From IMG/VR virus record IMGVR_UViG_2713896897_000010, positions 1 through 32,599 of that record: a stretch of DNA of 32,599 nt. The stretch is one strand, 5' to 3'. Within the stretch, counting starts at the first letter, position 1. Each line of letters begins with the position of its first letter. The notes beneath the pieces were generated by a model. It had not been told where the DNA came from. It did not search any database and worked only from the letters and a program-made list of their open reading frames with translations. The translations under genes were made by a program, and so were the position numbers. Shown here piece after piece: positions 9,854 to 18,921 of this stretch. This stretch comes from a virus. Lineage: Duplodnaviria; Heunggongvirae; Uroviricota; Caudoviricetes.

Positions 9854-10330
9854 ATGCAGACACTGAATTCCCAGCGTAAAGCTTTCCTTGATATGGTGGC
9901 ATGGTCAGAAGGAACGGATAACGGACGGCAGAAAACCAGAAATCACGGTTATGATGTTATTGTCGGTGGCGAACTGTTCACTGATTACTCCGATCACCCC
10001 CGCAAACTTGTCACGCTAAATCCGAAACTCAAATCAACAGCCGCCGGACGTTACCAGCTTCTTTCACGCTGGTGGGATGCCTACCGCAAGCAACTTGGCC
10101 TGAAAGATTTTTCTCCAGAAAGTCAGGATGCTGTAGCGCTGCAGCAGATTAAAGAGCGTGGCGCATTACCGATGATTGACCGCGGCGATATTCGTCAGGC
10201 AATCGACCGTTGCAGCAATATCTGGGCTTCGTTGCCGGGCGCTGGTTACGGTCAGTATGAACATAGAATCGGTGACCTGATTGCCCGATTTAAAGAAGCT
10301 GGTGGGGTGGTAAATGAAGCTGAGATATAA
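9854..10330 (+). CDS. R: Endolysin, lambda R-like lytic transglycosylase
   Basis: NSQRKAFLDMVAWSEGTDNGRQKTRNHGYDVIVGGELFTDYSDHPRKLV... near-identical to lambda R as I recall it. Confidence 0.9.
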   Translation: MQTLNSQRKAFLDMVAWSEGTDNGRQKTRNHGYDVIVGGELFTDYSDHPRKLVTLNPKLKSTAAGRYQLLSRWWDAYRKQLGLKDFSPESQDAVALQQIKERGALPMIDRGDIRQAIDRCSNIWASLPGAGYGQYEHRIGDLIARFKEAGGVVNEAEI

Positions 10331-10706
10331 GCTGGTTATTGTTGCCTTCTTTGTTACCGTCATCGGTTCTTTTATCTGGTATGCCGGGCATTACTACAGC
10401 AAATATCAACACGAAAAGGAGCGCGCTGATGAGGCTGTACGAAATGCTGAATCAGCAACAGCCATTACCCGTAACGTCCTGCAATCACTGCAAATCATCA
10501 ACACAGTTATAGAGGCTAACCAGCATGCAAAACAGCAGATCGCACTGGAGTCACAGAGAATCCAGAAAGATATCAAAGTGGCTGTTGCGGATGATGATTG
10601 CGCTGTTCGTATCGTTCCTTCTGGCGCAGTTAAGCGGTTGCACGAATACGCGAACGGTATACGTGTCGGTGCCGGTGGTTCCGTTACCAGCCAGTCTGAC
10701 GGCTGA
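10314..10706 (+). CDS. i-spanin (Rz-like), N-terminal TM anchor
   Basis: 130-aa ORF overlapping end of R, N-terminal hydrophobic segment, embedded o-spanin frame. Confidence 0.7.
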   Translation: MKLRYKLVIVAFFVTVIGSFIWYAGHYYSKYQHEKERADEAVRNAESATAITRNVLQSLQIINTVIEANQHAKQQIALESQRIQKDIKVAVADDDCAVRIVPSGAVKRLHEYANGIRVGAGGSVTSQSDG

Positions 10707-10869
10707 AACACCCCAGCCAGATTTACCCGACCCGTTTACGTGGGGGGCAAGCCTTAACCTGAATGTTGCATTGTTGTCAGCGTTAGCACAGTGCAACAGG
10801 GATAAGGCTGATATCAGGACTTTTGAGAAAAACAGGGCAGCACAAACCAATGGCACGATTAAACGTTGA
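10591..10869 (+). CDS. o-spanin (Rz1-like) lipoprotein, overlapping Rz in +1 frame and extending beyond it; start uncertain (possibly TTG at 10585)
   Basis: MMIALFVSFLLAQLSGC lipobox (L-S-G-C), Pro-rich mature region. Confidence 0.6.
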   Translation: MMIALFVSFLLAQLSGCTNTRTVYVSVPVVPLPASLTAETPQPDLPDPFTWGASLNLNVALLSALAQCNRDKADIRTFEKNRAAQTNGTIKR

Positions 10870-11154: not shown

Positions 11155-11934
11155 ATGAGCGAGAAATTGAAGATCGTCTATCGCCCGTTACAAGAGCTGT
11201 CTCTGTATGCACACAATGCCAGGACACACAGCCCTGAGCAGGTGACGCAACTGGTAGAAAGCATTAAGCAATTTGGCTGGACTAATCCGGTGCTGATTGA
11301 TGAAAAGGGCGAAGTTATTGCGGGTCACGGTCGCGTTATGGCGGCTGAAGTGCTCAAAATGGATTTCGTTCCGGTCATCGTTCTGTCTGGTCTGACGGAT
11401 GATCAGAAAAAGGCGTACCGTCTGGCAGATAATCGCCTGCCGATGAATGCTGGCTGGGATGAAGATCTGTTACGGATGGAGCTGTCGGACCTAATTAATG
11501 CTGATTTTGATGTCTCCCTGACAGGCTTCAGCCCGACAGAAATTGATGAACTGTTGACGGATATTTTGCCTGGTACAGGAAATGAGGAGGAGCCGTATAC
11601 GACGAAAATTGATACGCCTGTTTATGAGCCGTCAGGCGATAAACCGGATATCTGTGAACTGTACGACGATACGAAAACTCAGGAGCTGATCAGCCGGATA
11701 CGTTCGGTGTCCCTTGATCCTGATATTGAGAAATTCCTTCTGTGCGCGGCAGAACGTCACACGGTGTTTAATTTCAGCAGAATCGCGGACTATTACGCTC
11801 ACGCCCCCGCTGAAATTCAGAGCTTTTTTGAGGAATCGGCTCTGGTGATCATTGATTATCAGCAGGCAATTGAAAATGGGTTTGTCAGGATGACGCAGCG
11901 CATGGTGGAGATCATGCATGGCGAGGAGGAGTAA
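11155..11934 (+). CDS. ParB/Srx-like nuclease-domain protein
   Basis: N-terminal KIVYRPLQELSLYAHNARTHSPEQVTQLVESIKQFGWTNPVLIDEKGEVIAGHGRVMAA resembles ParB N-terminal (ParBc) domain. Confidence 0.65.
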   Translation: MSEKLKIVYRPLQELSLYAHNARTHSPEQVTQLVESIKQFGWTNPVLIDEKGEVIAGHGRVMAAEVLKMDFVPVIVLSGLTDDQKKAYRLADNRLPMNAGWDEDLLRMELSDLINADFDVSLTGFSPTEIDELLTDILPGTGNEEEPYTTKIDTPVYEPSGDKPDICELYDDTKTQELISRIRSVSLDPDIEKFLLCAAERHTVFNFSRIADYYAHAPAEIQSFFEESALVIIDYQQAIENGFVRMTQRMVEIMHGEEE

Positions 11935-11935
11935 T

Positions 11936-12868
11936 ATGCGTGATGATTTTTGCGCCTTTATTCTGACTCACGGGCGACCGGACAAAGTTCTGACTTACCG
12001 GACGTTGCGTCGTGCTGGCTATACCGGGAAAATTTTTATCGTTGTTGATGATGAAGATAAAACCCGGCATCAGTACGTAGCAGAATTTGGTGAACAGGTG
12101 CTGGTGTTTTCCAAAGCCGATATCGCCAGTCGTTTTGACGAAGCCGACAACTTTGGCGATCGACGTTCAATCTTTTATGCCAGGAATGCCTGTCTGGGCC
12201 TGGCAAAAAAGGTTGGGTGTAAATACTACATCCAGCTTGATGACGACTATCACGAGTTTCAGTTTCGGGTAGATCGCAACTATGACCAGGCTTATTTTCC
12301 GATAAGGAAACTGGACTCGATCCTTTCTGAAATGCTGGCGTATTACGAATCAATTCCTGCGCTTTCCATCGCTATGGCGCAGGGGGGGGACTTTCTTGGT
12401 GATAATGGTGGTCATTCTGCATGGGTGAAACGCAAAGCAATGAACAGCTTTATTTGTTCTGTTGACCGACCATTCTCATTTATGGGGCGTATTAACGAGG
12501 ATGTGAATACATACACGAATCTCGGTCGTCGTGGTGAATTGTTTTTGACGATTGGCGCTGTCCAGTTAGGGCAGAAGCAAACGCAGAAAAACAGCGGCGG
12601 AATGACCGAACTGTATCTGGATTCCGGCACCTACGTTAAAAGTTTTTACTCCGTCATGTATGCGCCGTCGTGCGTAAAAATCTCACTGATGGGCGCCAGC
12701 CATAAACGCATTCACCATCAGGTCACCTGGAACAACGCTGCAGTAAAAATCCTTCACGAAAAATACAGGAAGAAGACACCCTGCATATCAATGGGGGTGA
12801 TAAATGATTCCGTATTCGAAAGTCGAGTCTCTGGCAGCGTGCCGGATGACTGCACAACAAATCGCTGA
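11936..12868 (+). CDS. GT-A-fold (GT2-like) nucleotide-sugar glycosyltransferase-like protein, no obvious TM segment
   Basis: ATG with GGAGGAG upstream; FILTHGRPDKVLTYRTLRRAGYTGKIFIVVDDEDK resembles GT2 N-terminal motifs; YYIQLDDDYHEF is a DXD-type motif. Confidence 0.45.
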   Translation: MRDDFCAFILTHGRPDKVLTYRTLRRAGYTGKIFIVVDDEDKTRHQYVAEFGEQVLVFSKADIASRFDEADNFGDRRSIFYARNACLGLAKKVGCKYYIQLDDDYHEFQFRVDRNYDQAYFPIRKLDSILSEMLAYYESIPALSIAMAQGGDFLGDNGGHSAWVKRKAMNSFICSVDRPFSFMGRINEDVNTYTNLGRRGELFLTIGAVQLGQKQTQKNSGGMTELYLDSGTYVKSFYSVMYAPSCVKISLMGASHKRIHHQVTWNNAAVKILHEKYRKKTPCISMGVINDSVFESRVSGSVPDDCTTNR

Positions 12869-13055
12869 CGTTCTGGATGTTGATCTGAACAGACTGAAAG
12901 AAAATCGGGAAGCAATGACAAATTTTTATGCGTCCATCCGTAAGGGCAGAGCGAAAGGTGAAGCCGAGCTACGGGCGGCATTGTTTAAGCTTGCCAGAAA
13001 AGGGGATGCCTTTGCTCTGCGTGCATTACTCAGGGTGGATAAAAATCAGGACTAA
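12804..13055 (+). CDS. Hypothetical small helix-turn-helix-like protein upstream of small terminase
   Basis: 83-aa ORF; overlaps 3' end of previous gene so true start may be internal (Met near 12846). Confidence 0.4.
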   Translation: MIPYSKVESLAACRMTAQQIADVLDVDLNRLKENREAMTNFYASIRKGRAKGEAELRAALFKLARKGDAFALRALLRVDKNQD

Positions 13056-13058
13056 CTG

Positions 13059-14126
13059 ATGAGCAGACCGGACTGGGGGGCGTTGCAGCAGGAATATATT
13101 GCTGAATACACCCGCTCCGGTGTATCTCCGGTGGCGTGGTGTGAAGCAAAGGGACTGAATTACGCAACAGCCCGTCGTTACATCAAGAAACCTCCGAAAA
13201 ATGCGCAGACAGAAGTGCGCAAAACTGCGCAGACTGCGCAAAAGCAAAACGGAAAATCTCAGAAAAAAAAGACTGTATCCGATGCACTCCTGATTGAGGA
13301 GGACACGGAAGAAATTTCGTTCTGCCCCGATGAATTCGGTATTTCTGACCAGCAGGCAAAATTCGCCATGTTGGTTGCTCAGGGGAAAAAGCCGACAGAG
13401 GCATACCGCCTGGCTGGTTACGAGGGGCAAGGTGCGACAGCAAACAGCAATGCCAGTCGTATGCTTAGAAATGCCAGGGTTTTTCGTGCCATCAGCTACT
13501 TTCGCAATCATTACCAGAAACGCTATACCGCAGACCTGGATTTACTGGTGAGTCAGTTGATGGCCATCGTGCAGGCTGATCCCAATCAGCTTGCGCAATT
13601 TCGCCGTGTTAACTGTCGCTATTGCTGGGGGGATAATCACCTCTATCAGTGGCGCGATATAGCAGAATTTGACAGGGCTGCCGCGCAGGCATCCAAAGAT
13701 GGTAAACCAGAACCTGAATATGGTGGCCTCGGTTTCGTTGATAGCGCCATACCAAATCCAGACTGTCCGAAATGCGGTGGAGAAGGTACAGGTCAGCTTT
13801 ATATGGCTGATACCACTTTGCTTGATGGAAATGCGCGGCAATTGTATGCAGGAGCAAAGCTCGGAAAATTCGGCGTTGAGATCCTGCTGGAGAATAAAGC
13901 TGCCGCCCGGCGTGAATTATTGCGTTTGCTTTCCGCTGGCGGGGCATTATGTGCAGATAAGCGACTACAGGAACTGGAAATTGAACGGCGCAGAATGGAA
14001 AACCAGAAACTGCGCAAAGAGATCGAAACGGTGGAGGGTAATGAACATCCCCAGCCTGTGGCGATCAATATTAATGTGGTTGATGCCAGAGTGAGGAGTG
14101 ATGAAGATGATCTCTCCGACGCTTAA
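13059..14126 (+). CDS. Terminase small subunit (Terminase_2/P27-like core with N-terminal HTH and C-terminal Cys-rich region)
   Basis: DQQAKFAMLVAQGKKPTEAYRLAGYEGQGATANSNASRMLRNARVFRAISYF matches small-terminase core pattern; directly upstream of terL. Confidence 0.7.
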   Translation: MSRPDWGALQQEYIAEYTRSGVSPVAWCEAKGLNYATARRYIKKPPKNAQTEVRKTAQTAQKQNGKSQKKKTVSDALLIEEDTEEISFCPDEFGISDQQAKFAMLVAQGKKPTEAYRLAGYEGQGATANSNASRMLRNARVFRAISYFRNHYQKRYTADLDLLVSQLMAIVQADPNQLAQFRRVNCRYCWGDNHLYQWRDIAEFDRAAAQASKDGKPEPEYGGLGFVDSAIPNPDCPKCGGEGTGQLYMADTTLLDGNARQLYAGAKLGKFGVEILLENKAAARRELLRLLSAGGALCADKRLQELEIERRRMENQKLRKEIETVEGNEHPQPVAININVVDARVRSDEDDLSDA

Positions 14127-16416
14127 TGTGCCTCAGGCGCGATTTCTTTCTATGCCTCATAAATTTAAAGCCTATGTTGCTGGTTTTGGTTGCCTGAGGG
14201 GAAGTACGCCTGTGGTTACAGAGAATGGGATTCTACCCATTCAGGAAATAACTCGACCAATGCGCGTTTTATCTTGGTCGGATGAGAATAATCGATTTGA
14301 GCTTTCGCTAAGTGGTGGTGCGTACCCAAAAGGTGTGGCGAATCTATACCGAGTAGTGACGCAGCGAGGAGAATTTGTAGCAAGCGGACATCACTGCGTT
14401 TTTTGCGCTGACGGTAGCTATCGATCTGTGGATAGTCTGGACGAATCGGTGAAGGTATTTGCATCTTCGCAAAACTTTCTTCTGACCAGTTTGGCCGCCG
14501 TCCCGAAATCGTTGCACGCAGGTGATCCACGTTTGAATCAAAAACTCGCAGATTACTTGGGTTGTTATGCAGATGAAGCCCGTCGATATGGTCAACAACT
14601 TCTGATGGCAGCAGATAACGCCCCAGCTTCTTTTCAGCGATCAAACGATGTTCAAACATCATGCCTGTTCTGCGCATATATGGATGGTCAGCAGGCGCTG
14701 GAACAACGGCATATCCATCCAGATCAACAATTCGACCACCACGAAAGCTGGGGTTCAACTCACCCTTTCTGGCTCCACGGGGGAGCCGGTTGGCGTTGTG
14801 AATTCGGAGAATATTTTGAACGTGCTTTTCTGTGCAACCAACTTCCGCTGCGATCTCTGCCGACGTACGGTGACCATCAGCAAGAGCGAGGATTCTGTCC
14901 TTCGCACTTTCTCGAGGGGCAGGCTTCTGGCGTTGTTTCAGCGTTAACCCATAACGAGATATGCAACGATAAACATGACTGCGGTCACAACCTGCCAGAG
15001 AAGCAACTTCTGAAACGGTACGTTCTGGATGTGTTAAATCACAAATTAAATGGTCAAGAGGCGTCAAAGCCAAACTCCTTAATCGAAACCTGCAACATAT
15101 TGAGTGTAAAACTGTTGCAGGAGGCCGAGCCATATTATGACCTCCAGGTATTGGATAATAACTGCTACGTAACTGCTGATGGGACGATTCATCACAATAG
15201 CGGTAAAACATGGGTTGGGTGTGGTGGCATATGTAAGGGGATTTGGGAGCATCCGGGTATCAATCAGGGATATTTTGCGCCTACATATCCACAAATTCGC
15301 GATATTTTTTATCCTACAGTTGAAGAAGTTGCTGCCGACTGGGGGCTAAATGTAAAAATTAACGAGGGAAATAAAGAAGTTCATTTTTATTACGGACGTC
15401 AGTATCGGGGAACCACTATCTGCAGATCGATGGAGAAGCCGCAAACGATCGTCGGTTTCAAAATTGGTAATGCGCTGGTGGATGAACTGGACATTTTGCC
15501 GAAGGAAAAAGCCAGAACAGCGTGGCGCAAGATAATTGCGCGTATGCGTTATAAGGTTGATGGACTTCGCAACGGTATTGACGTTACAACCACGCCGGAA
15601 GGATTCAAATTTGTCTATGAGCAGTTTGTTAAAGCCGTACGTGAAAAAACAGAGCTGGCCTCACTGTATGGTCTGGTGCAGGCATCTACTTTCGATAATG
15701 AAAAGAATCTGCCAGCAGATTACATTCCCTCGCTCCTTGAGTCATATCCTCCAGAGCTGATTAAAGCCTATCTTCGAGGACAGTTTACTAACTTGACAAG
15801 TGGTACTGTTTACCATCAGTTTGACCGAAAACTGAATAATTGCGAAGAAGAGGAACAGCCAGGTGAGCCGATATATATCGGGATGGATTTTAACGTCGGA
15901 AAAATGGCTGGAGTCGTTCATGTGTTACGTTTTGGGCTTCCATGCGCAGTAACTGAAATCATTAACGCTTACGATACACCAGATATGATCCGTATTATTA
16001 AAGAGCGCTTCTGGTTATATGACGGGAATGATTATCGGAAAGTAAGGGAAATTTATATTTATCCTGATGCATCCGGGGATTCCAGAAAATCAAATAACGC
16101 AAGTGCGACGGATATTGCTCAGCTTAAACAGGCTGGTTTTAACGTTGTTGTAAACAGTTCGAATCCGCCAGTAAAAGATCGCGTTAACTCAATGAATGCA
16201 ATGTTCTGCAATGCCAATGGTGAGCGTCGCTATAAAGTTAATGTGAAGCGTTGTCCGGTATATGCCGAATCTCTGGAGCAACAGGTCTGGGATGACAAGG
16301 GTGAGCCTGATAAAAAATCTGGCAACGATCACCCGAATGATGCCGGAGGTTATTTTATTGTTAAGCAATTCCCTATTGTCAAACCGACCGGAAGAGTTAC
16401 ATCACTTCGGATTTAA
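14098..16416 (+). CDS. Terminase large subunit precursor containing an intein in the Walker A P-loop
   Basis: Exteins AYVAGFG | SGKTWVGCGG reconstitute a Walker A motif (GFGSGKT); Walker B-like IVGFKIGNALVDELD; 772-aa precursor, about 436 aa after splicing. Confidence 0.85.
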   Translation: MMKMISPTLNVPQARFLSMPHKFKAYVAGFGCLRGSTPVVTENGILPIQEITRPMRVLSWSDENNRFELSLSGGAYPKGVANLYRVVTQRGEFVASGHHCVFCADGSYRSVDSLDESVKVFASSQNFLLTSLAAVPKSLHAGDPRLNQKLADYLGCYADEARRYGQQLLMAADNAPASFQRSNDVQTSCLFCAYMDGQQALEQRHIHPDQQFDHHESWGSTHPFWLHGGAGWRCEFGEYFERAFLCNQLPLRSLPTYGDHQQERGFCPSHFLEGQASGVVSALTHNEICNDKHDCGHNLPEKQLLKRYVLDVLNHKLNGQEASKPNSLIETCNILSVKLLQEAEPYYDLQVLDNNCYVTADGTIHHNSGKTWVGCGGICKGIWEHPGINQGYFAPTYPQIRDIFYPTVEEVAADWGLNVKINEGNKEVHFYYGRQYRGTTICRSMEKPQTIVGFKIGNALVDELDILPKEKARTAWRKIIARMRYKVDGLRNGIDVTTTPEGFKFVYEQFVKAVREKTELASLYGLVQASTFDNEKNLPADYIPSLLESYPPELIKAYLRGQFTNLTSGTVYHQFDRKLNNCEEEEQPGEPIYIGMDFNVGKMAGVVHVLRFGLPCAVTEIINAYDTPDMIRIIKERFWLYDGNDYRKVREIYIYPDASGDSRKSNNASATDIAQLKQAGFNVVVNSSNPPVKDRVNSMNAMFCNANGERRYKVNVKRCPVYAESLEQQVWDDKGEPDKKSGNDHPNDAGGYFIVKQFPIVKPTGRVTSLRI
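14191..15198 (+). mobile_element. Intein (336 aa) inserted in the terminase P-loop
   Basis: Begins with Cys (CLRGSTPVVTENGILPIQEI, block A-like), block B-like GEFVASGHHCVF..DGSYRSVDSL, C-terminal YYDLQVLDNNCYVTADGTIHHN followed by +1 Ser. Confidence 0.8.
14216..15133 (-). CDS. HNH (HNH_3-type) endonuclease with two N-terminal HTH motifs, encoded antisense inside the intein
   Basis: Minus-strand translation gives ...RGGRIVDLDGYAVV...EVVDHIDGLHLHNNPSNLRVFDSNVDHL (verified by hand at nt 14521-14600); GGAGG 7 nt upstream of ATG at 15133; ORF tool start is 15211. Confidence 0.7.
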   Translation of the reverse strand: MARPPATVLHSICCRFRLRSLALTPLDHLICDLTHPERTVSEVASLAGCDRSHVYRCISRYGLTLKQRQKPAPRESAKDRILALADGHRTSAEIAAEVGCTEKHVQNILRIHNANRLPRGARKGELNPSFRGGRIVDLDGYAVVPAPADHPYMRRTGMMFEHRLIAEKKLGRYLLPSEVVDHIDGLHLHNNPSNLRVFDSNVDHLRATISGRRPNWSEESFAKMQIPSPIRPDYPQIDSYRQRKKRSDVRLLQILLAASLLGIDSPHLLGTHHHLAKAQIDYSHPTKIKRALVELFPEWVESHSL

Positions 16417-16418
16417 TT

Positions 16419-17825
16419 ATGGCTGATATATCAACACCCAACCTCGACTATAACGATATGCTGGAGGCGTGGGATATTAACGACGCACTGATGGGTGGCA
16501 CGCTTGAAATGCGCAGGCAGGGGAAAAATTATCTCCCTAAATGGCCTAATGAAGATGAAGACACATATAAAAAACGCTTGTCTGTGGCTACGCTACTTCC
16601 TGTGTATGAAGAAAGTATTAAGCAAAATATTGGGCGCATATTTGCAGAGCCGACAGTGCTGAGTGAAGAGACGCCGGAAAAAATCAGGGAATATGCAGAA
16701 AATATCGACATGGAGGGGAGTCGACTGGATGTATGGGCGCAGCAATTTTTCTGTCTAGCGCTTCAGTATGGCGTGGCGCATGCGCTGGTGGATTATCCTC
16801 GAACAGATATGAAAGGGATTCGGACAAAAGCTGATGAAAATGCGGTTGGTAGTCGCCCATACGTTACGATGCTGAATCCCCGTCAGGTTATTGGGTGGAA
16901 ATCGAAAGTTGAAAAAGGAAAAGTTGTTCTCACAGATTTGCGTATAAAAGAAGTCATCATTATCGATGGTGATGATTTCGGGCAGAAGAAGGTGGAGCAG
17001 ATCCGCCATATCATGTCCCGTCGCGTTGAAATTTATCGACGCAGCGAAGGTACTAATGGTGAATCTGTCTGGACGCTTCACGAGTCATGGGAAACCAGCC
17101 GTGATGATATTCCCTTGGTAACGCTTTACACGAAGAAAATCGGGTTTATGCGCGGTACACCGCCATTGCTTAATCTTGGCTTGCTGAATATCAAGCACTG
17201 GAAAAGCCAGAGCGAGCAGGACAATATTCTGCATGTTGCTCGGGTTCCATTGCTGGTGGCTTACGGACTGGACAGGAACGAAGAACTGACGGTAGGAGCA
17301 TCGACCGCGACGATTTTTGATGACAGGGCAAAAAATGGCCTTGAATATGTTGAGCATAGCGGTGCCGCGATAGAGTCTGGCGAAATATCTCTGGAGAAAC
17401 TGGAAAATCAGATGCGTCATGCCGGCGCTAAACTTCTTCGGGCTGAAAATACATCCACTAAATCTGTGGATCAGACCAATGAAGAACGGATGCAGGAAAA
17501 CTCGCCGCTTTATACAATGGCGAACTCCCTCGAAGATGCCCTCGATAATATTCTCCAGATAATGGCGGAATGGATCGGAGAGAGTTGCGGCGGCAATGTG
17601 GATGTGCGCACTGAGCTGGATGTATCTGCCCAGGTGTTTGACTCATCCTCCGCGCTGGCTGTTCAGTCATTGCGTCAGGGTGGTGATATACGTCAGATTG
17701 ATGCGGTTCGGGTGTTGCAGGCGTTGAAATTTATCGATCAGGATTCCCGTCCAGAGGAAGTGATCGATGAATTAAAAAATCAGGGCGTAACGCTGATGGG
17801 AATCAATGATGCAAACAGTGAATGA
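16419..17825 (+). CDS. Portal protein (putative)
   Basis: 468-aa ORF directly downstream of terL and upstream of a Mu F-like head morphogenesis gene; assignment by synteny and size. Confidence 0.6.
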   Translation: MADISTPNLDYNDMLEAWDINDALMGGTLEMRRQGKNYLPKWPNEDEDTYKKRLSVATLLPVYEESIKQNIGRIFAEPTVLSEETPEKIREYAENIDMEGSRLDVWAQQFFCLALQYGVAHALVDYPRTDMKGIRTKADENAVGSRPYVTMLNPRQVIGWKSKVEKGKVVLTDLRIKEVIIIDGDDFGQKKVEQIRHIMSRRVEIYRRSEGTNGESVWTLHESWETSRDDIPLVTLYTKKIGFMRGTPPLLNLGLLNIKHWKSQSEQDNILHVARVPLLVAYGLDRNEELTVGASTATIFDDRAKNGLEYVEHSGAAIESGEISLEKLENQMRHAGAKLLRAENTSTKSVDQTNEERMQENSPLYTMANSLEDALDNILQIMAEWIGESCGGNVDVRTELDVSAQVFDSSSALAVQSLRQGGDIRQIDAVRVLQALKFIDQDSRPEEVIDELKNQGVTLMGINDANSE

Positions 17826-18921
17826 ACGGCTGCGTGATGAATCGATTGCCCATGCTATCTGGATATCTCGCTATAGCACAGGTGTAGCGGCCAGAATGGT
17901 GAAAACGCTGAACGACAGCGACGCAGAGCTTACAGCTCGTTTGCTGGTGGCTCTGGATAATCTTGGGCCGGGGAGTTTCACCGTTACGCGTCTGGAATCA
18001 CTTCTGGTGAGTGTGAGGGAAGTTAACCGCACTGCTATTAACAGTATGTTTGCTCGTCTCTCAGGAGAGTTAAACGAGCTGGCGATATATGAGGCTAGCT
18101 ATCAGTTAAGTCTGTTTGACTCTTTGCTTCCTGATTTTGTGGCGGATATTCATCCTCTGATTGGTATCTCACCTGACACCCTTTATGCCGCTGCAATGGC
18201 GCGTCCATTTCAGGGAAGACTACTCAACGAATGGGCCTCAGACCTTGAAGCAGATCGGCTCAGGCGTATTACAAATACGGTACGTCAGGGTTTTTTGCTG
18301 GGTGATACCAATGAGCAGATCGCAAGAAAAATTCGTGGGCATGTCAGCAAGGGATTTCAGGATGGTGCATTGCAGATGAGTCGAGCTAATGCGGGCAGTA
18401 TTGCAAAAACAGCGGTTGGGCATCTTGCTGCTACTGCCCGTGAGAGTTTCGCCATGGCAAACAATGATTTGATAAAGGGCAAACAATGGTTATCCACACT
18501 TGATAATCGTACTACACCACAGTGTCGAATCAGGGATCGCCTCAAATATACGCTGGATAATAAACCTATTGGTCACAAAGTACCTTATTTACAGGGGCCG
18601 GGAAAAATTCATTTCTGCTGCCGTTCAACAGAAACGTTTATTCTGAAATCTGCGAAGGAACTGGGGATTGATGTTCGGGATGTTTCTCCTGCCGAGAGGG
18701 CAAGTATGGATGGGGTTGTAGCCGGAGATACGACTTACAAGGAATGGTTTTTGCGCCAGTCTTATGCCAGGCAAAAACAAATAGTGGGAGAAACACGGGC
18801 AAAACTGATTCGTGATGGAGGTATGTCACCAGATGAATTTTACACCGATAAAGGTGAATGGTTGACGCTGGGACAACTCCGTGAGCGTGATGCTCAGGCA
18901 TTCAGAAAAGCCGGGATTTAA
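17806..18921 (+). CDS. Head morphogenesis protein (Mu F-like / SPP1 gp7-like)
   Basis: 371-aa ORF after portal; pattern typical of minor head proteins. Confidence 0.6.
   Translation: MMQTVNERLRDESIAHAIWISRYSTGVAARMVKTLNDSDAELTARLLVALDNLGPGSFTVTRLESLLVSVREVNRTAINSMFARLSGELNELAIYEASYQLSLFDSLLPDFVADIHPLIGISPDTLYAAAMARPFQGRLLNEWASDLEADRLRRITNTVRQGFLLGDTNEQIARKIRGHVSKGFQDGALQMSRANAGSIAKTAVGHLAATARESFAMANNDLIKGKQWLSTLDNRTTPQCRIRDRLKYTLDNKPIGHKVPYLQGPGKIHFCCRSTETFILKSAKELGIDVRDVSPAERASMDGVVAGDTTYKEWFLRQSYARQKQIVGETRAKLIRDGGMSPDEFYTDKGEWLTLGQLRERDAQAFRKAGI

Follow-up and report, generated by a model that had tools for sequence, protein, structure and literature searches.

We analyzed a 32,599-nucleotide (nt) stretch of viral DNA, IMG/VR record IMGVR_UViG_2713896897_000010 (Caudoviricetes), which is a Rac-like lambdoid prophage and is referred to here, over its full length, as the window. 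Between its lysis and packaging genes lie two plus-strand genes, the first encoding a ParB-like protein (here called the partner) and the second a glycosyltransferase (GT). An original prediction, made from the letters of the sequence without database searches, had recognized both open reading frames (ORFs) and their placement, which we confirm. The best start of the GT gene is the ATG at 11936, not 11918. This start follows a GAGGAGG Shine-Dalgarno sequence, lies 1 nt past the stop codon of the partner gene, and yields the N terminus MRDDFCAFIL, which is common to homologs. Each gene has thousands of homolog clusters, so these are not chance ORFs.

An obligate two-gene unit

We retrieved three sets of 80 loci each (close viral, diverse viral, and genome loci, the last from a collection with one genome per species) and treated a locus as testable if it extended 800 nt or more upstream of the GT gene. 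A ParB-like partner lies upstream of the GT on the same strand in every testable locus (78/78 close viral, 70/70 diverse viral, and 68/68 genome loci), and the co-occurrence on which the original prediction had staked the pairing is therefore general. In homologs, the stop and start codons nearly always overlap, usually by 4 to 14 nt. There are three real exceptions, one in which a radical S-adenosylmethionine (radical-SAM) gene lies between the pair and two in which a second TAGT gene does. In the window, the placement of the ribosome-binding site inside the end of the partner gene and the 1-nt gap suggest that the two genes are translationally coupled.

The C-terminal domain of the partner tracks the GT closely. 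We found it by tblastn in 28 phage records, all 28 of which also hold the GT, and it forms 1,188 representative clusters in a library of 1.84 billion proteins, mostly of ∼250 to 300 amino acids (aa) with the domain at the C terminus. In Vibrio jumbo phages (∼190 kb), a 139-aa ORF consisting of the C-terminal domain only lies directly upstream of the GT (phage pv27, locus L252, 8459-9888). The two proteins also have opposite charge across homologs: the isoelectric point (pI) of the partner has a median of 4.6 and never exceeds 7, and that of the GT has a median of 8.9 and exceeds 7 in 93%. No ParB-GT fusion proteins are evident among the top 150 representatives; longer apparent fusions are likely assembly or frameshift artifacts. 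Because the genes co-occur strictly, their reading frames overlap, and the partner’s C-terminal domain is specific to the GT, the two are an obligate pair and one functional unit. The full pair is present in 889/5,426 complete Escherichia coli genomes (about 16%) and in phages of Proteobacteria, Firmicutes, Actinobacteria, Bacteroidota, and haloarchaea, the archaeal virus HHTV-2 among them.

A glycosyltransferase of the TAGT family

The GT matches Pfam TAGT (PF20691) with an E value of 1.8e-35 and 123.2 bits (cut-off, 27.5), over residues 8-222 and profile positions 4-205 of 205, and PHROG 842 (phrog_842) at 1.5e-99; its homologs likewise carry PF20691. NCBIfam has no model for it, and its profile gave only chance-level matches to PDB sequences. 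Judged by its family profiles, the protein is a clear TAGT member and not a generic GT2-like enzyme. The motifs listed in the original prediction are all present (THGRP with R14, IVVDDED, and YIQLDDDYHEF with D102-D104), as is E188-D189; in alignments, R14, D102-D104, and D189 are invariant among homologs, and E188 is nearly so. The enzyme would use a nucleotide sugar through this R...DDD...ED active site.

The AlphaFold model of the GT has a predicted template modeling (pTM) score of 0.70, with a predicted local distance difference test (pLDDT) score of around 90 in the N-terminal half. Its fold matches in the PDB are mostly GT-A glycosyltransferases (GalS1, SpsA, ColGalT1, SunS, and glycogenin), with nucleotidyltransferases of related fold, such as ADP-glucose pyrophosphorylase, also matched, and viral TAGT models match it at 6e-23 with template modeling (TM) scores of 0.65 to 0.71. 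Thus, of the predicted GT2-like enzyme with a GT-A fold, the fold is upheld and the generic GT2-like label gives way to TAGT. The view that the enzyme is soluble and unlike GtrB also stands, given the lack of Gtr partners and of membrane segments (the maximum Kyte-Doolittle value over a 19-residue window is 1.08). There are no export signals either. The last ∼22 aa of the GT are an extension specific to enterobacterial copies, and this extension overlaps the next ORF. In E. coli, the Prokaryotic Genome Annotation Pipeline (PGAP) names the gene “GREB1-related protein.”

The TAGT family was reportedly first defined by Iyer et al. in 2013, who are also said to have discussed links to ParB. The TAGT relatives that have been characterized, or whose function has been predicted, act on DNA (PMC13216743; bioRxiv 10.1101/2023.12.21.572611), and phage GT-A enzymes acting on 5-hydroxymethylcytosine (5hmC) share the R...DDD...ED motif with the trypanosome base-J enzyme JGT (bioRxiv 10.1101/2023.12.21.572611). 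Because TAGT is tied in this way to DNA base glycosylation, the function of the pair is more predictable than first held, when it was judged not to be predictable from sequence. Furthermore, the GT retains 40 to 48% identity between an E. coli prophage, a Nocardia phage, Lactobacillus phages, and a haloarchaeal virus, which argues for a universal acceptor, such as DNA.

A ParB-fold partner with a private C-terminal domain

The ParB/Srx-type N-terminal domain that had been predicted for the first gene is borne out by profiles and fold. Residues 23-88 match Pfam ParB_N at 2.5e-5 and 24.7 bits, narrowly missing the cut-off of 26.3, and the protein matches PHROG 620 (phrog_620), “ParB-like partition protein,” at 1e-86. 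Foldseek matched the model of the N-terminal domain (pLDDT 73-93 across aa 1-90) to PadC, Noc, ParB-CDP (ParB bound to cytidine diphosphate), and KorB with a probability of 1.0 and E values of 2e-6 to 1e-5. The box-II GxxR motif (G57 and R60) and D92/N93 are conserved in this domain; among 126 diverse partner sequences, with a median identity of 36% to the window’s protein, conservation reaches 95% or more at G57 and N93 and 80% or more at R60. The N-terminal ∼140 aa also match phrog_498, “DNA methyltransferase,” at 2.1e-49 (profile 31-171 of 633), and residues 11-144 match PADLOC MTase_II at 1e-36 (profile 14-151 of 436). Only this N-terminal part aligns to the two profiles, and the partner is without their C-terminal N6/N4 methyltransferase domain. 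The nucleoside triphosphate (NTP) specificity of ParB-CTPase folds is not predictable from sequence (Kaljevic et al., PMC12704722).

The most conserved part of the partner is the C-terminal domain, in which ∼13 positions are at least 95% conserved across the 126 sequences, versus 3 in the N-terminal domain; its motif reads YT-KI--P-YEP ... FL--AA-RH-VF ... SALVIID. It has no Pfam family above the cut-off, the sole match being Phage_Gene47 at 13.2 bits (cut-off, 27 bits), and no PDB relative by sequence.

The partner fails the tests of a canonical partition ParB. Pfam revealed no helix-turn-helix (HTH) domain, the score against TIGR00180 (32.6 bits) is far under the cut-off of 58.45, and no ParA was found among the window ORFs that were scanned. 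“ParB-like nuclease” is a name only, and nothing here points to nuclease activity. PGAP calls the gene ynaK in E. coli; we found no functional data on ynaK in the literature.

Genomic context and the cargo slot

Positions of the pair and of other features are collected in Table 1. In at least 97 of the 119 loci with enough sequence, a terminase or portal gene is found no more than five genes downstream of the pair, and the terminases beside it are of four unrelated TerL types (Terminase_6N, T7-like, TerL_ATPase/HK97-like, and GpA/lambda-like). The order is cos-ParB-GT-TerS-TerL in Lactobacillus phage c5 and ParB, GT, TerL in Nocardia phage NTR1, where the pair abuts TerL and no TerS is annotated. 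A minority of loci are situated among replication genes (DnaB, beta-clamp, primase, and single-stranded DNA-binding protein); in pv27-type Vibrio phages, the pair lies amid helicase, primase, and exonuclease genes and not next to a terminase.

Aside from terminase genes, no third conserved gene accompanies the pair. The commonest gene directly downstream is a homolog of the window’s 83-aa ORF; these homologs (85 to 206 aa; median, 163) make up neighbor cluster 2, which occurs in 77/166 loci, mostly at position +1. The 83-aa ORF may be the remnant of a TerS that traveled with the pair. We asked whether this small phrog_309-like protein belongs to the module as a third component and decided that it does not: its median identity is 31%, versus 49.5% for the GT and 37.6% for the partner, and its behavior is that of an ordinary TerS.

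Between the Q antiterminator and the terminase genes of the window, we found no sigma-70-like promoter, which suggests that the pair is transcribed late and in a Q-dependent manner; neither was a promoter or terminator specific to the pair found. The proposal that the slot is an accessory (moron) site agrees with what relatives with a homologous TerS carry there. In Escherichia phage Rac-SA53 (L254, 3192-4332), the genes for the A and B subunits of heat-labile enterotoxin IIa (LT-IIa) occupy the slot between lysis and terminase genes, and this replacement of the pair marks the site as a cargo hotspot. Other such relatives have no such cargo and lack the pair, and some Lactobacillus phages carry decayed GT copies.

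The module itself varies. A ∼320-aa radical-SAM enzyme lies between the partner and GT genes or just after the GT in 9 loci; it matches only generic radical-SAM or SPASM-type models, far below their cut-offs, and no specific family. Other variants include an NAD-dependent sugar epimerase/dehydratase and tandem TAGT paralogs. Loci with such variants are L111 (936-1901), L226 (7860-8816), L235 (7864-8835), L104 (7876-8853), L194, and L236. Additional enzymes of these kinds are typical of glycan-building DNA hypermodification clusters.

TABLE 1 Features of the window and the basis of their assignment
Feature	Position	Strand	Basis or remark
ParB/Srx-like partner, 259 aa, acidic, pI 4.5	11155..11934	+	Pfam, PHROG, fold matches
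N-terminal ParB-CTPase-fold domain of partner, ∼aa 1-140	11155..11574	+	phrog_498, PADLOC MTase_II, Foldseek
GT-specific C-terminal domain of partner, ∼aa 145-245	11587..11889	+	Conservation, exclusive occurrence with GT
Gene junction: GAGGAGG ribosome-binding site inside end of partner gene, TAA 11932-11934, GT ATG 11936	11920..11938	+	
TAGT-family GT-A glycosyltransferase, 310 aa, basic, pI 8.7	11936..12868	+	Pfam PF20691, phrog_842, fold
83-aa ORF resembling the middle of phrog_309 terminase small subunits	12804..13055	+	phrog_309 at 8e-22
TerS	13059-14126	+	Terminase_2 at 3.6e-7, phrog_51 at 1.6e-73
TerL with intein	14098-16416	+	Terminase_6N, Terminase_6C
Intein in TerL, 339 aa	about 14191-15207		Walker A motif
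HTH + HNH_3 endonuclease gene, antisense, 331 aa	14216-15211	-	Spans almost the whole intein; sense frame open
Lysozyme	9854-10330	+	
Rz/Rz1	10314-10869	+	
Integrase (two ORFs), RecT, RecE-like exonuclease	window	-	
DUF1367, Q antiterminator, holin, lysozyme, Rz/Rz1, ParB-GT pair, TerS, TerL, portal, head, tail		+	
Integrase, Phage_integrase part	1-930	-	
Integrase, Arm-DNA-binding domain	946-1236	-	
Putative head-morphogenesis (MuF-like) gene	17806-18921	+	Position
ORF of 500 aa at tail end of window	31001-32503	-	No Pfam match at E<=0.01

A candidate ParB-assisted DNA glycosylation module

With moderate confidence, we read the pair as a late, ParB-assisted DNA glycosyltransferase module. The basic TAGT-family GT-A enzyme would take a nucleotide sugar through its R...DDD...ED site. 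The N-terminal domain of the partner would be an NTP-binding switch or clamp of the kind fused to phage DNA methyltransferases, and its unique C-terminal domain would dock or activate the GT. In this way, the partner would make double-stranded phage DNA productively accessible to the enzyme, either shortly before packaging or while it is under way. Progeny genomes would then leave with sugar-modified bases, changing their recognition by host nucleases. We infer DNA as the acceptor, complex formation between the two proteins, the timing, and an anti-restriction benefit. The access-giving role proposed for the partner follows the precedents of ParB-dependent thymine dioxygenases and ParB-methyltransferase fusions, and the conservation of the GT and of the partner’s C-terminal domain from E. 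coli prophages to haloarchaeal viruses suggests a universal acceptor, either DNA or the partner itself. The original prediction had left the choice between DNA or receptor modification, anti-restriction, and defense. Of these, we favor DNA modification; receptor modification and defense are disfavored because of the lack of transmembrane segments, of Gtr partners, and of a PADLOC match for the GT, together with the packaging or replication context.

Several observations weigh against this interpretation. No TET/JBP enzyme, C5-methyltransferase, or thymidylate-synthase-like hydroxymethylase was found in the window or in the complete 31.8-kb phage c5 (annotation and a Pfam scan of its unknown ORFs), and none is recurrent among 148 neighbor-cluster representatives (first 25 of 74 families; rare single cases may occur). 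The window also has no alpha- or beta-GT and no dCMP hydroxymethylase. TAGT chemistry as known needs 5hmC, 5-hydroxymethyluracil (5hmU), or a sugar already on them. We know of no glycosylation of canonical DNA bases, and, to our knowledge, E. coli and the other hosts do not make 5hmC or 5hmU. GREB1, an animal protein with a TAGT domain, is reported to glycosylate protein. The partner is strongly acidic, with no DNA-binding HTH detected, so that any contact it makes with DNA is putative. The mean pLDDT of the GT and partner models (65 to 70) is only moderate, and the partner’s C-terminal domain is of low confidence (pLDDT from <50 to ∼70) in a model built from a shallow alignment. The relatives that have a homologous TerS and lack the pair, together with the decayed GT copies, argue that any benefit is conditional. 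Finally, GTs without a neighboring base-modification enzyme have been judged “less likely” to be DNA modifiers (Pyle et al.).

More tentatively, we propose as one possible form of the mechanism that the partner loads or activates the TAGT enzyme on ordinary double-stranded DNA, so that a canonical base or another native position of DNA is glycosylated without a hydroxymethyl precursor. If true, this would be a kind of DNA modification unknown before.

A rather unlikely alternative is that the GT puts its sugar onto a protein, either its own partner or one of packaging or of the virion, and that the partner is substrate or carrier rather than DNA adaptor. The candidate site would be the invariant Tyr/Thr of the exposed YT-KI--P-YEP loop: Y148, T149, and Y157 are among the most conserved residues of the partner, in a segment disordered in the model. 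The opposite charges of partner (acidic) and GT (basic) suggest a tight pairing of an enzyme with its substrate or its partner, the fold neighbors in the PDB include the self-glucosylating glycogenin and peptide S-glycosyltransferases, and the TAGT domain of GREB1 is reported to be a protein O-GlcNAc transferase. The pair also adjoins virion and packaging genes, yet a minority of loci belong to replication rather than virion modules, and an N-terminal domain of the type associated with DNA methyltransferases is hard to explain in a mere substrate. Moreover, a protein acceptor would have to be conserved as far as haloarchaeal viruses, yet the terminases and capsids are of unrelated types, so only the partner itself would qualify. 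Should the sugar go onto the partner, the pair would be a new ParB-fold glycoprotein system.

It is improbable that the GT has a conventional TAGT role, with 5hmC or 5hmU (or the first sugar on them) provided by an unrecognized enzyme, a distant phage-encoded one, or one of the host. The searches for such enzymes in the window, in complete c5, and among the neighbor representatives speak against it, as do the hosts, from which, as far as we know, no 5hmC or 5hmU is to be had, and the restriction of conserved third genes to those of the terminase. In its favor, many small unknown ORFs flank the pair, the characterized TAGT relatives all take hydroxymethyl-pyrimidine-derived acceptors (PMC13216743; PMC8256090), and thousands of contigs encode divergent proteins resembling the phage thymine dioxygenase 5mYOX that lack a Pfam TET/JBP annotation (PNAS 2026, PMC13229309).

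Quite improbable, in our assessment, is a target other than phage DNA, such as a small molecule (nucleotide second messenger), host DNA, RNA, or a cell component, in the service of anti-defense or superinfection exclusion, with the ParB/Srx domain acting as an NTP-dependent enzyme or regulator. The kinases SerK and SbnI and Srx are ParB/Srx folds that appear among the fold matches, the slot holds morons in relatives (the LT-IIa toxin of Rac-SA53), and related phages can dispense with the pair. Against these stand the lack of membrane segments and export signals, the lack of a PADLOC match for the GT (the ParB-like protein matches only the ParB-like N terminus of the Type II methyltransferase model), and the packaging or replication context, whose consistency across phyla points to phage DNA. 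The placement in a late operon without a promoter of its own argues against exclusion expressed in the lysogen.

That the ParB-like protein is a nuclease, pac-site factor, or segregation protein with the GT as an unrelated passenger is highly improbable: annotations do name it a “ParB-like nuclease/partition protein,” and it lies directly upstream of TerS or TerL (which it abuts in NTR1), but the strict co-occurrence, overlapping frames, and GT-specific C-terminal domain, the Vibrio ORF that keeps this domain only, the failure to find an HTH domain or, in the ORFs scanned, ParA, and the phages with homologous TerS that package without the pair all count against it.

Other features of the prophage

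The close relatives of the window (93% DNA identity) are induced E. coli phages and a Salmonella phage, and the Rac hallmarks RalR, RacC, Kil, and TrkG are present in one relative that we examined closely. The integrase is split. No repressor, cro, or O/P-type replication genes were seen between recE/DUF551 and DUF1367 (5490-7590); the relative vB_EcoS-683R6 has them. The window’s copy of the prophage may be defective. The equivalent of the MuF-like gene in vB_EcoS-683R6 is annotated “NAD+--asparagine ADP-ribosyltransferase,” and in related loci the genes found at this position hit either Phage_Mu_F or a PHROG with the description “Bxa ADP-ribosyl transferase”; from these labels, the window’s gene may carry a toxin-like domain.

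TerL in the window is 772 aa long, versus about 433 aa in relatives, and holds its intein in the Walker A motif (AGFG/CLRGS...HHN/SGKTW). This intein’s homing endonuclease seems to be encoded on the opposite strand. The same layout, at the same site, is seen in Pectobacterium phage Ymer and its relatives, with an antisense HNH protein that is 48% identical and with conserved splicing blocks; in these phages, the central sense-strand region of the intein is poorly conserved, yet open. The TerL insertion occurs in 1/5,426 complete E. coli genomes (strain MEI003), where PGAP calls TerL a pseudogene.

Comparison with known systems

The GT most directly invites comparison with the TET/JBP (5mYOX)-associated phage GT-A DNA glycosyltransferases (Burke 2021; Pyle 2023/2024), which share its Pfam TAGT family, GT-A fold, and R...DDD...ED motif, are phage encoded too, and often have ParB-like genes nearby. 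In contrast to these, the window’s GT is not accompanied by a C5-methyltransferase, 5mYOX, or hydroxymethylase, it comes with an obligate partner whose C-terminal domain is private, and its group has an invariant Val after the ED (NEDVN), where Tyr or Phe is quoted for the 5hmC enzymes. The beta-glucosyl-HMC-alpha-glucosyltransferase of T2/T6, a TAGT member that acts on glucosylated hydroxymethylcytosine (hmC) (PMC13216743), shares the Pfam and PHROG family label with the window’s GT. The two are only remotely related: at E<=1e-5, the GT finds no match in any T-even phage, and its match in Aeromonas phage 65 is 23% identical. The T-even enzyme extends glucose already present on hmC in genomes with all C replaced by hmC, machinery that is absent here. 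GtrB-type O-antigen conversion GTs have a membrane anchor and GtrA/GtrC neighbors; the window’s GT has neither, and its neighbors are the ParB-like gene and terminase genes.

For the partner, one parallel is 5mYOX176/ParB176 (PMC13229309), in which a DNA-modifying enzyme goes with a small ParB-CTPase-fold protein made of an N-terminal nucleotide-binding domain and a C-terminal domain. ParB-like proteins were found experimentally to be required activators of phage 5mYOX, specifically on double-stranded DNA, and have no obvious DNA-binding domain (PMC13229309). Both systems are phage encoded and often lie near the terminase, and the two partner architectures, as described, are compatible, including the lack of a recognizable DNA-binding domain. 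They differ in that the gene adjacent to our partner is always a TAGT and not a dioxygenase, with no TET/JBP seen. In the phage ParB-N6/N4 DNA methyltransferase fusions (phrog_498; PADLOC MTase_II), which are enriched in prophage regions (Kaljevic 2025, PMC12704722), the N-terminal ∼140 aa are clearly homologous to those of the partner, whereas in the pair the catalytic component is a separate polypeptide, a GT, and the ParB protein ends in a GT-specific domain. The canonical ParB/Spo0J/Noc/KorB CTPase clamps have the N-terminal fold, the GxxR arginine, and the box-III Asn in common with the partner, which differs from them in being acidic, with no HTH or parS-binding domain detected and no ParA among the ORFs scanned.

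In the literature we searched, no ParB and glycosyltransferase pair has been characterized, and co-occurrence is mentioned in passing only. Both families are known; we found no paper that recognizes or characterizes the obligate oxidase-free pair, the private C-terminal domain, or the terminase-proximal placement. “Solitary” TAGTs, of unknown function and acceptor, have been counted in 288/753 GT-encoding phage genomes (PMC13216743), and the locus joins this loose end to a second, the ParB-fold activators of DNA-modifying enzymes (PMC13229309). A large share of the TAGTs that pass as solitary belong in fact to an obligate two-gene unit with a dedicated ParB-like protein, at the head of the packaging operon and with no oxidase. 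Since the module resides in a genetically tractable place, Rac-like E. coli prophages in which the ParB gene is ynaK, both DNA glycosylation without a hydroxymethyl handle and the role of ParB-fold partners for DNA-modifying enzymes are directly testable. The outcome bears on evasion of restriction and defense, on how phage DNA behaves when it is sequenced or cloned, and on potential new DNA-labeling enzymes.

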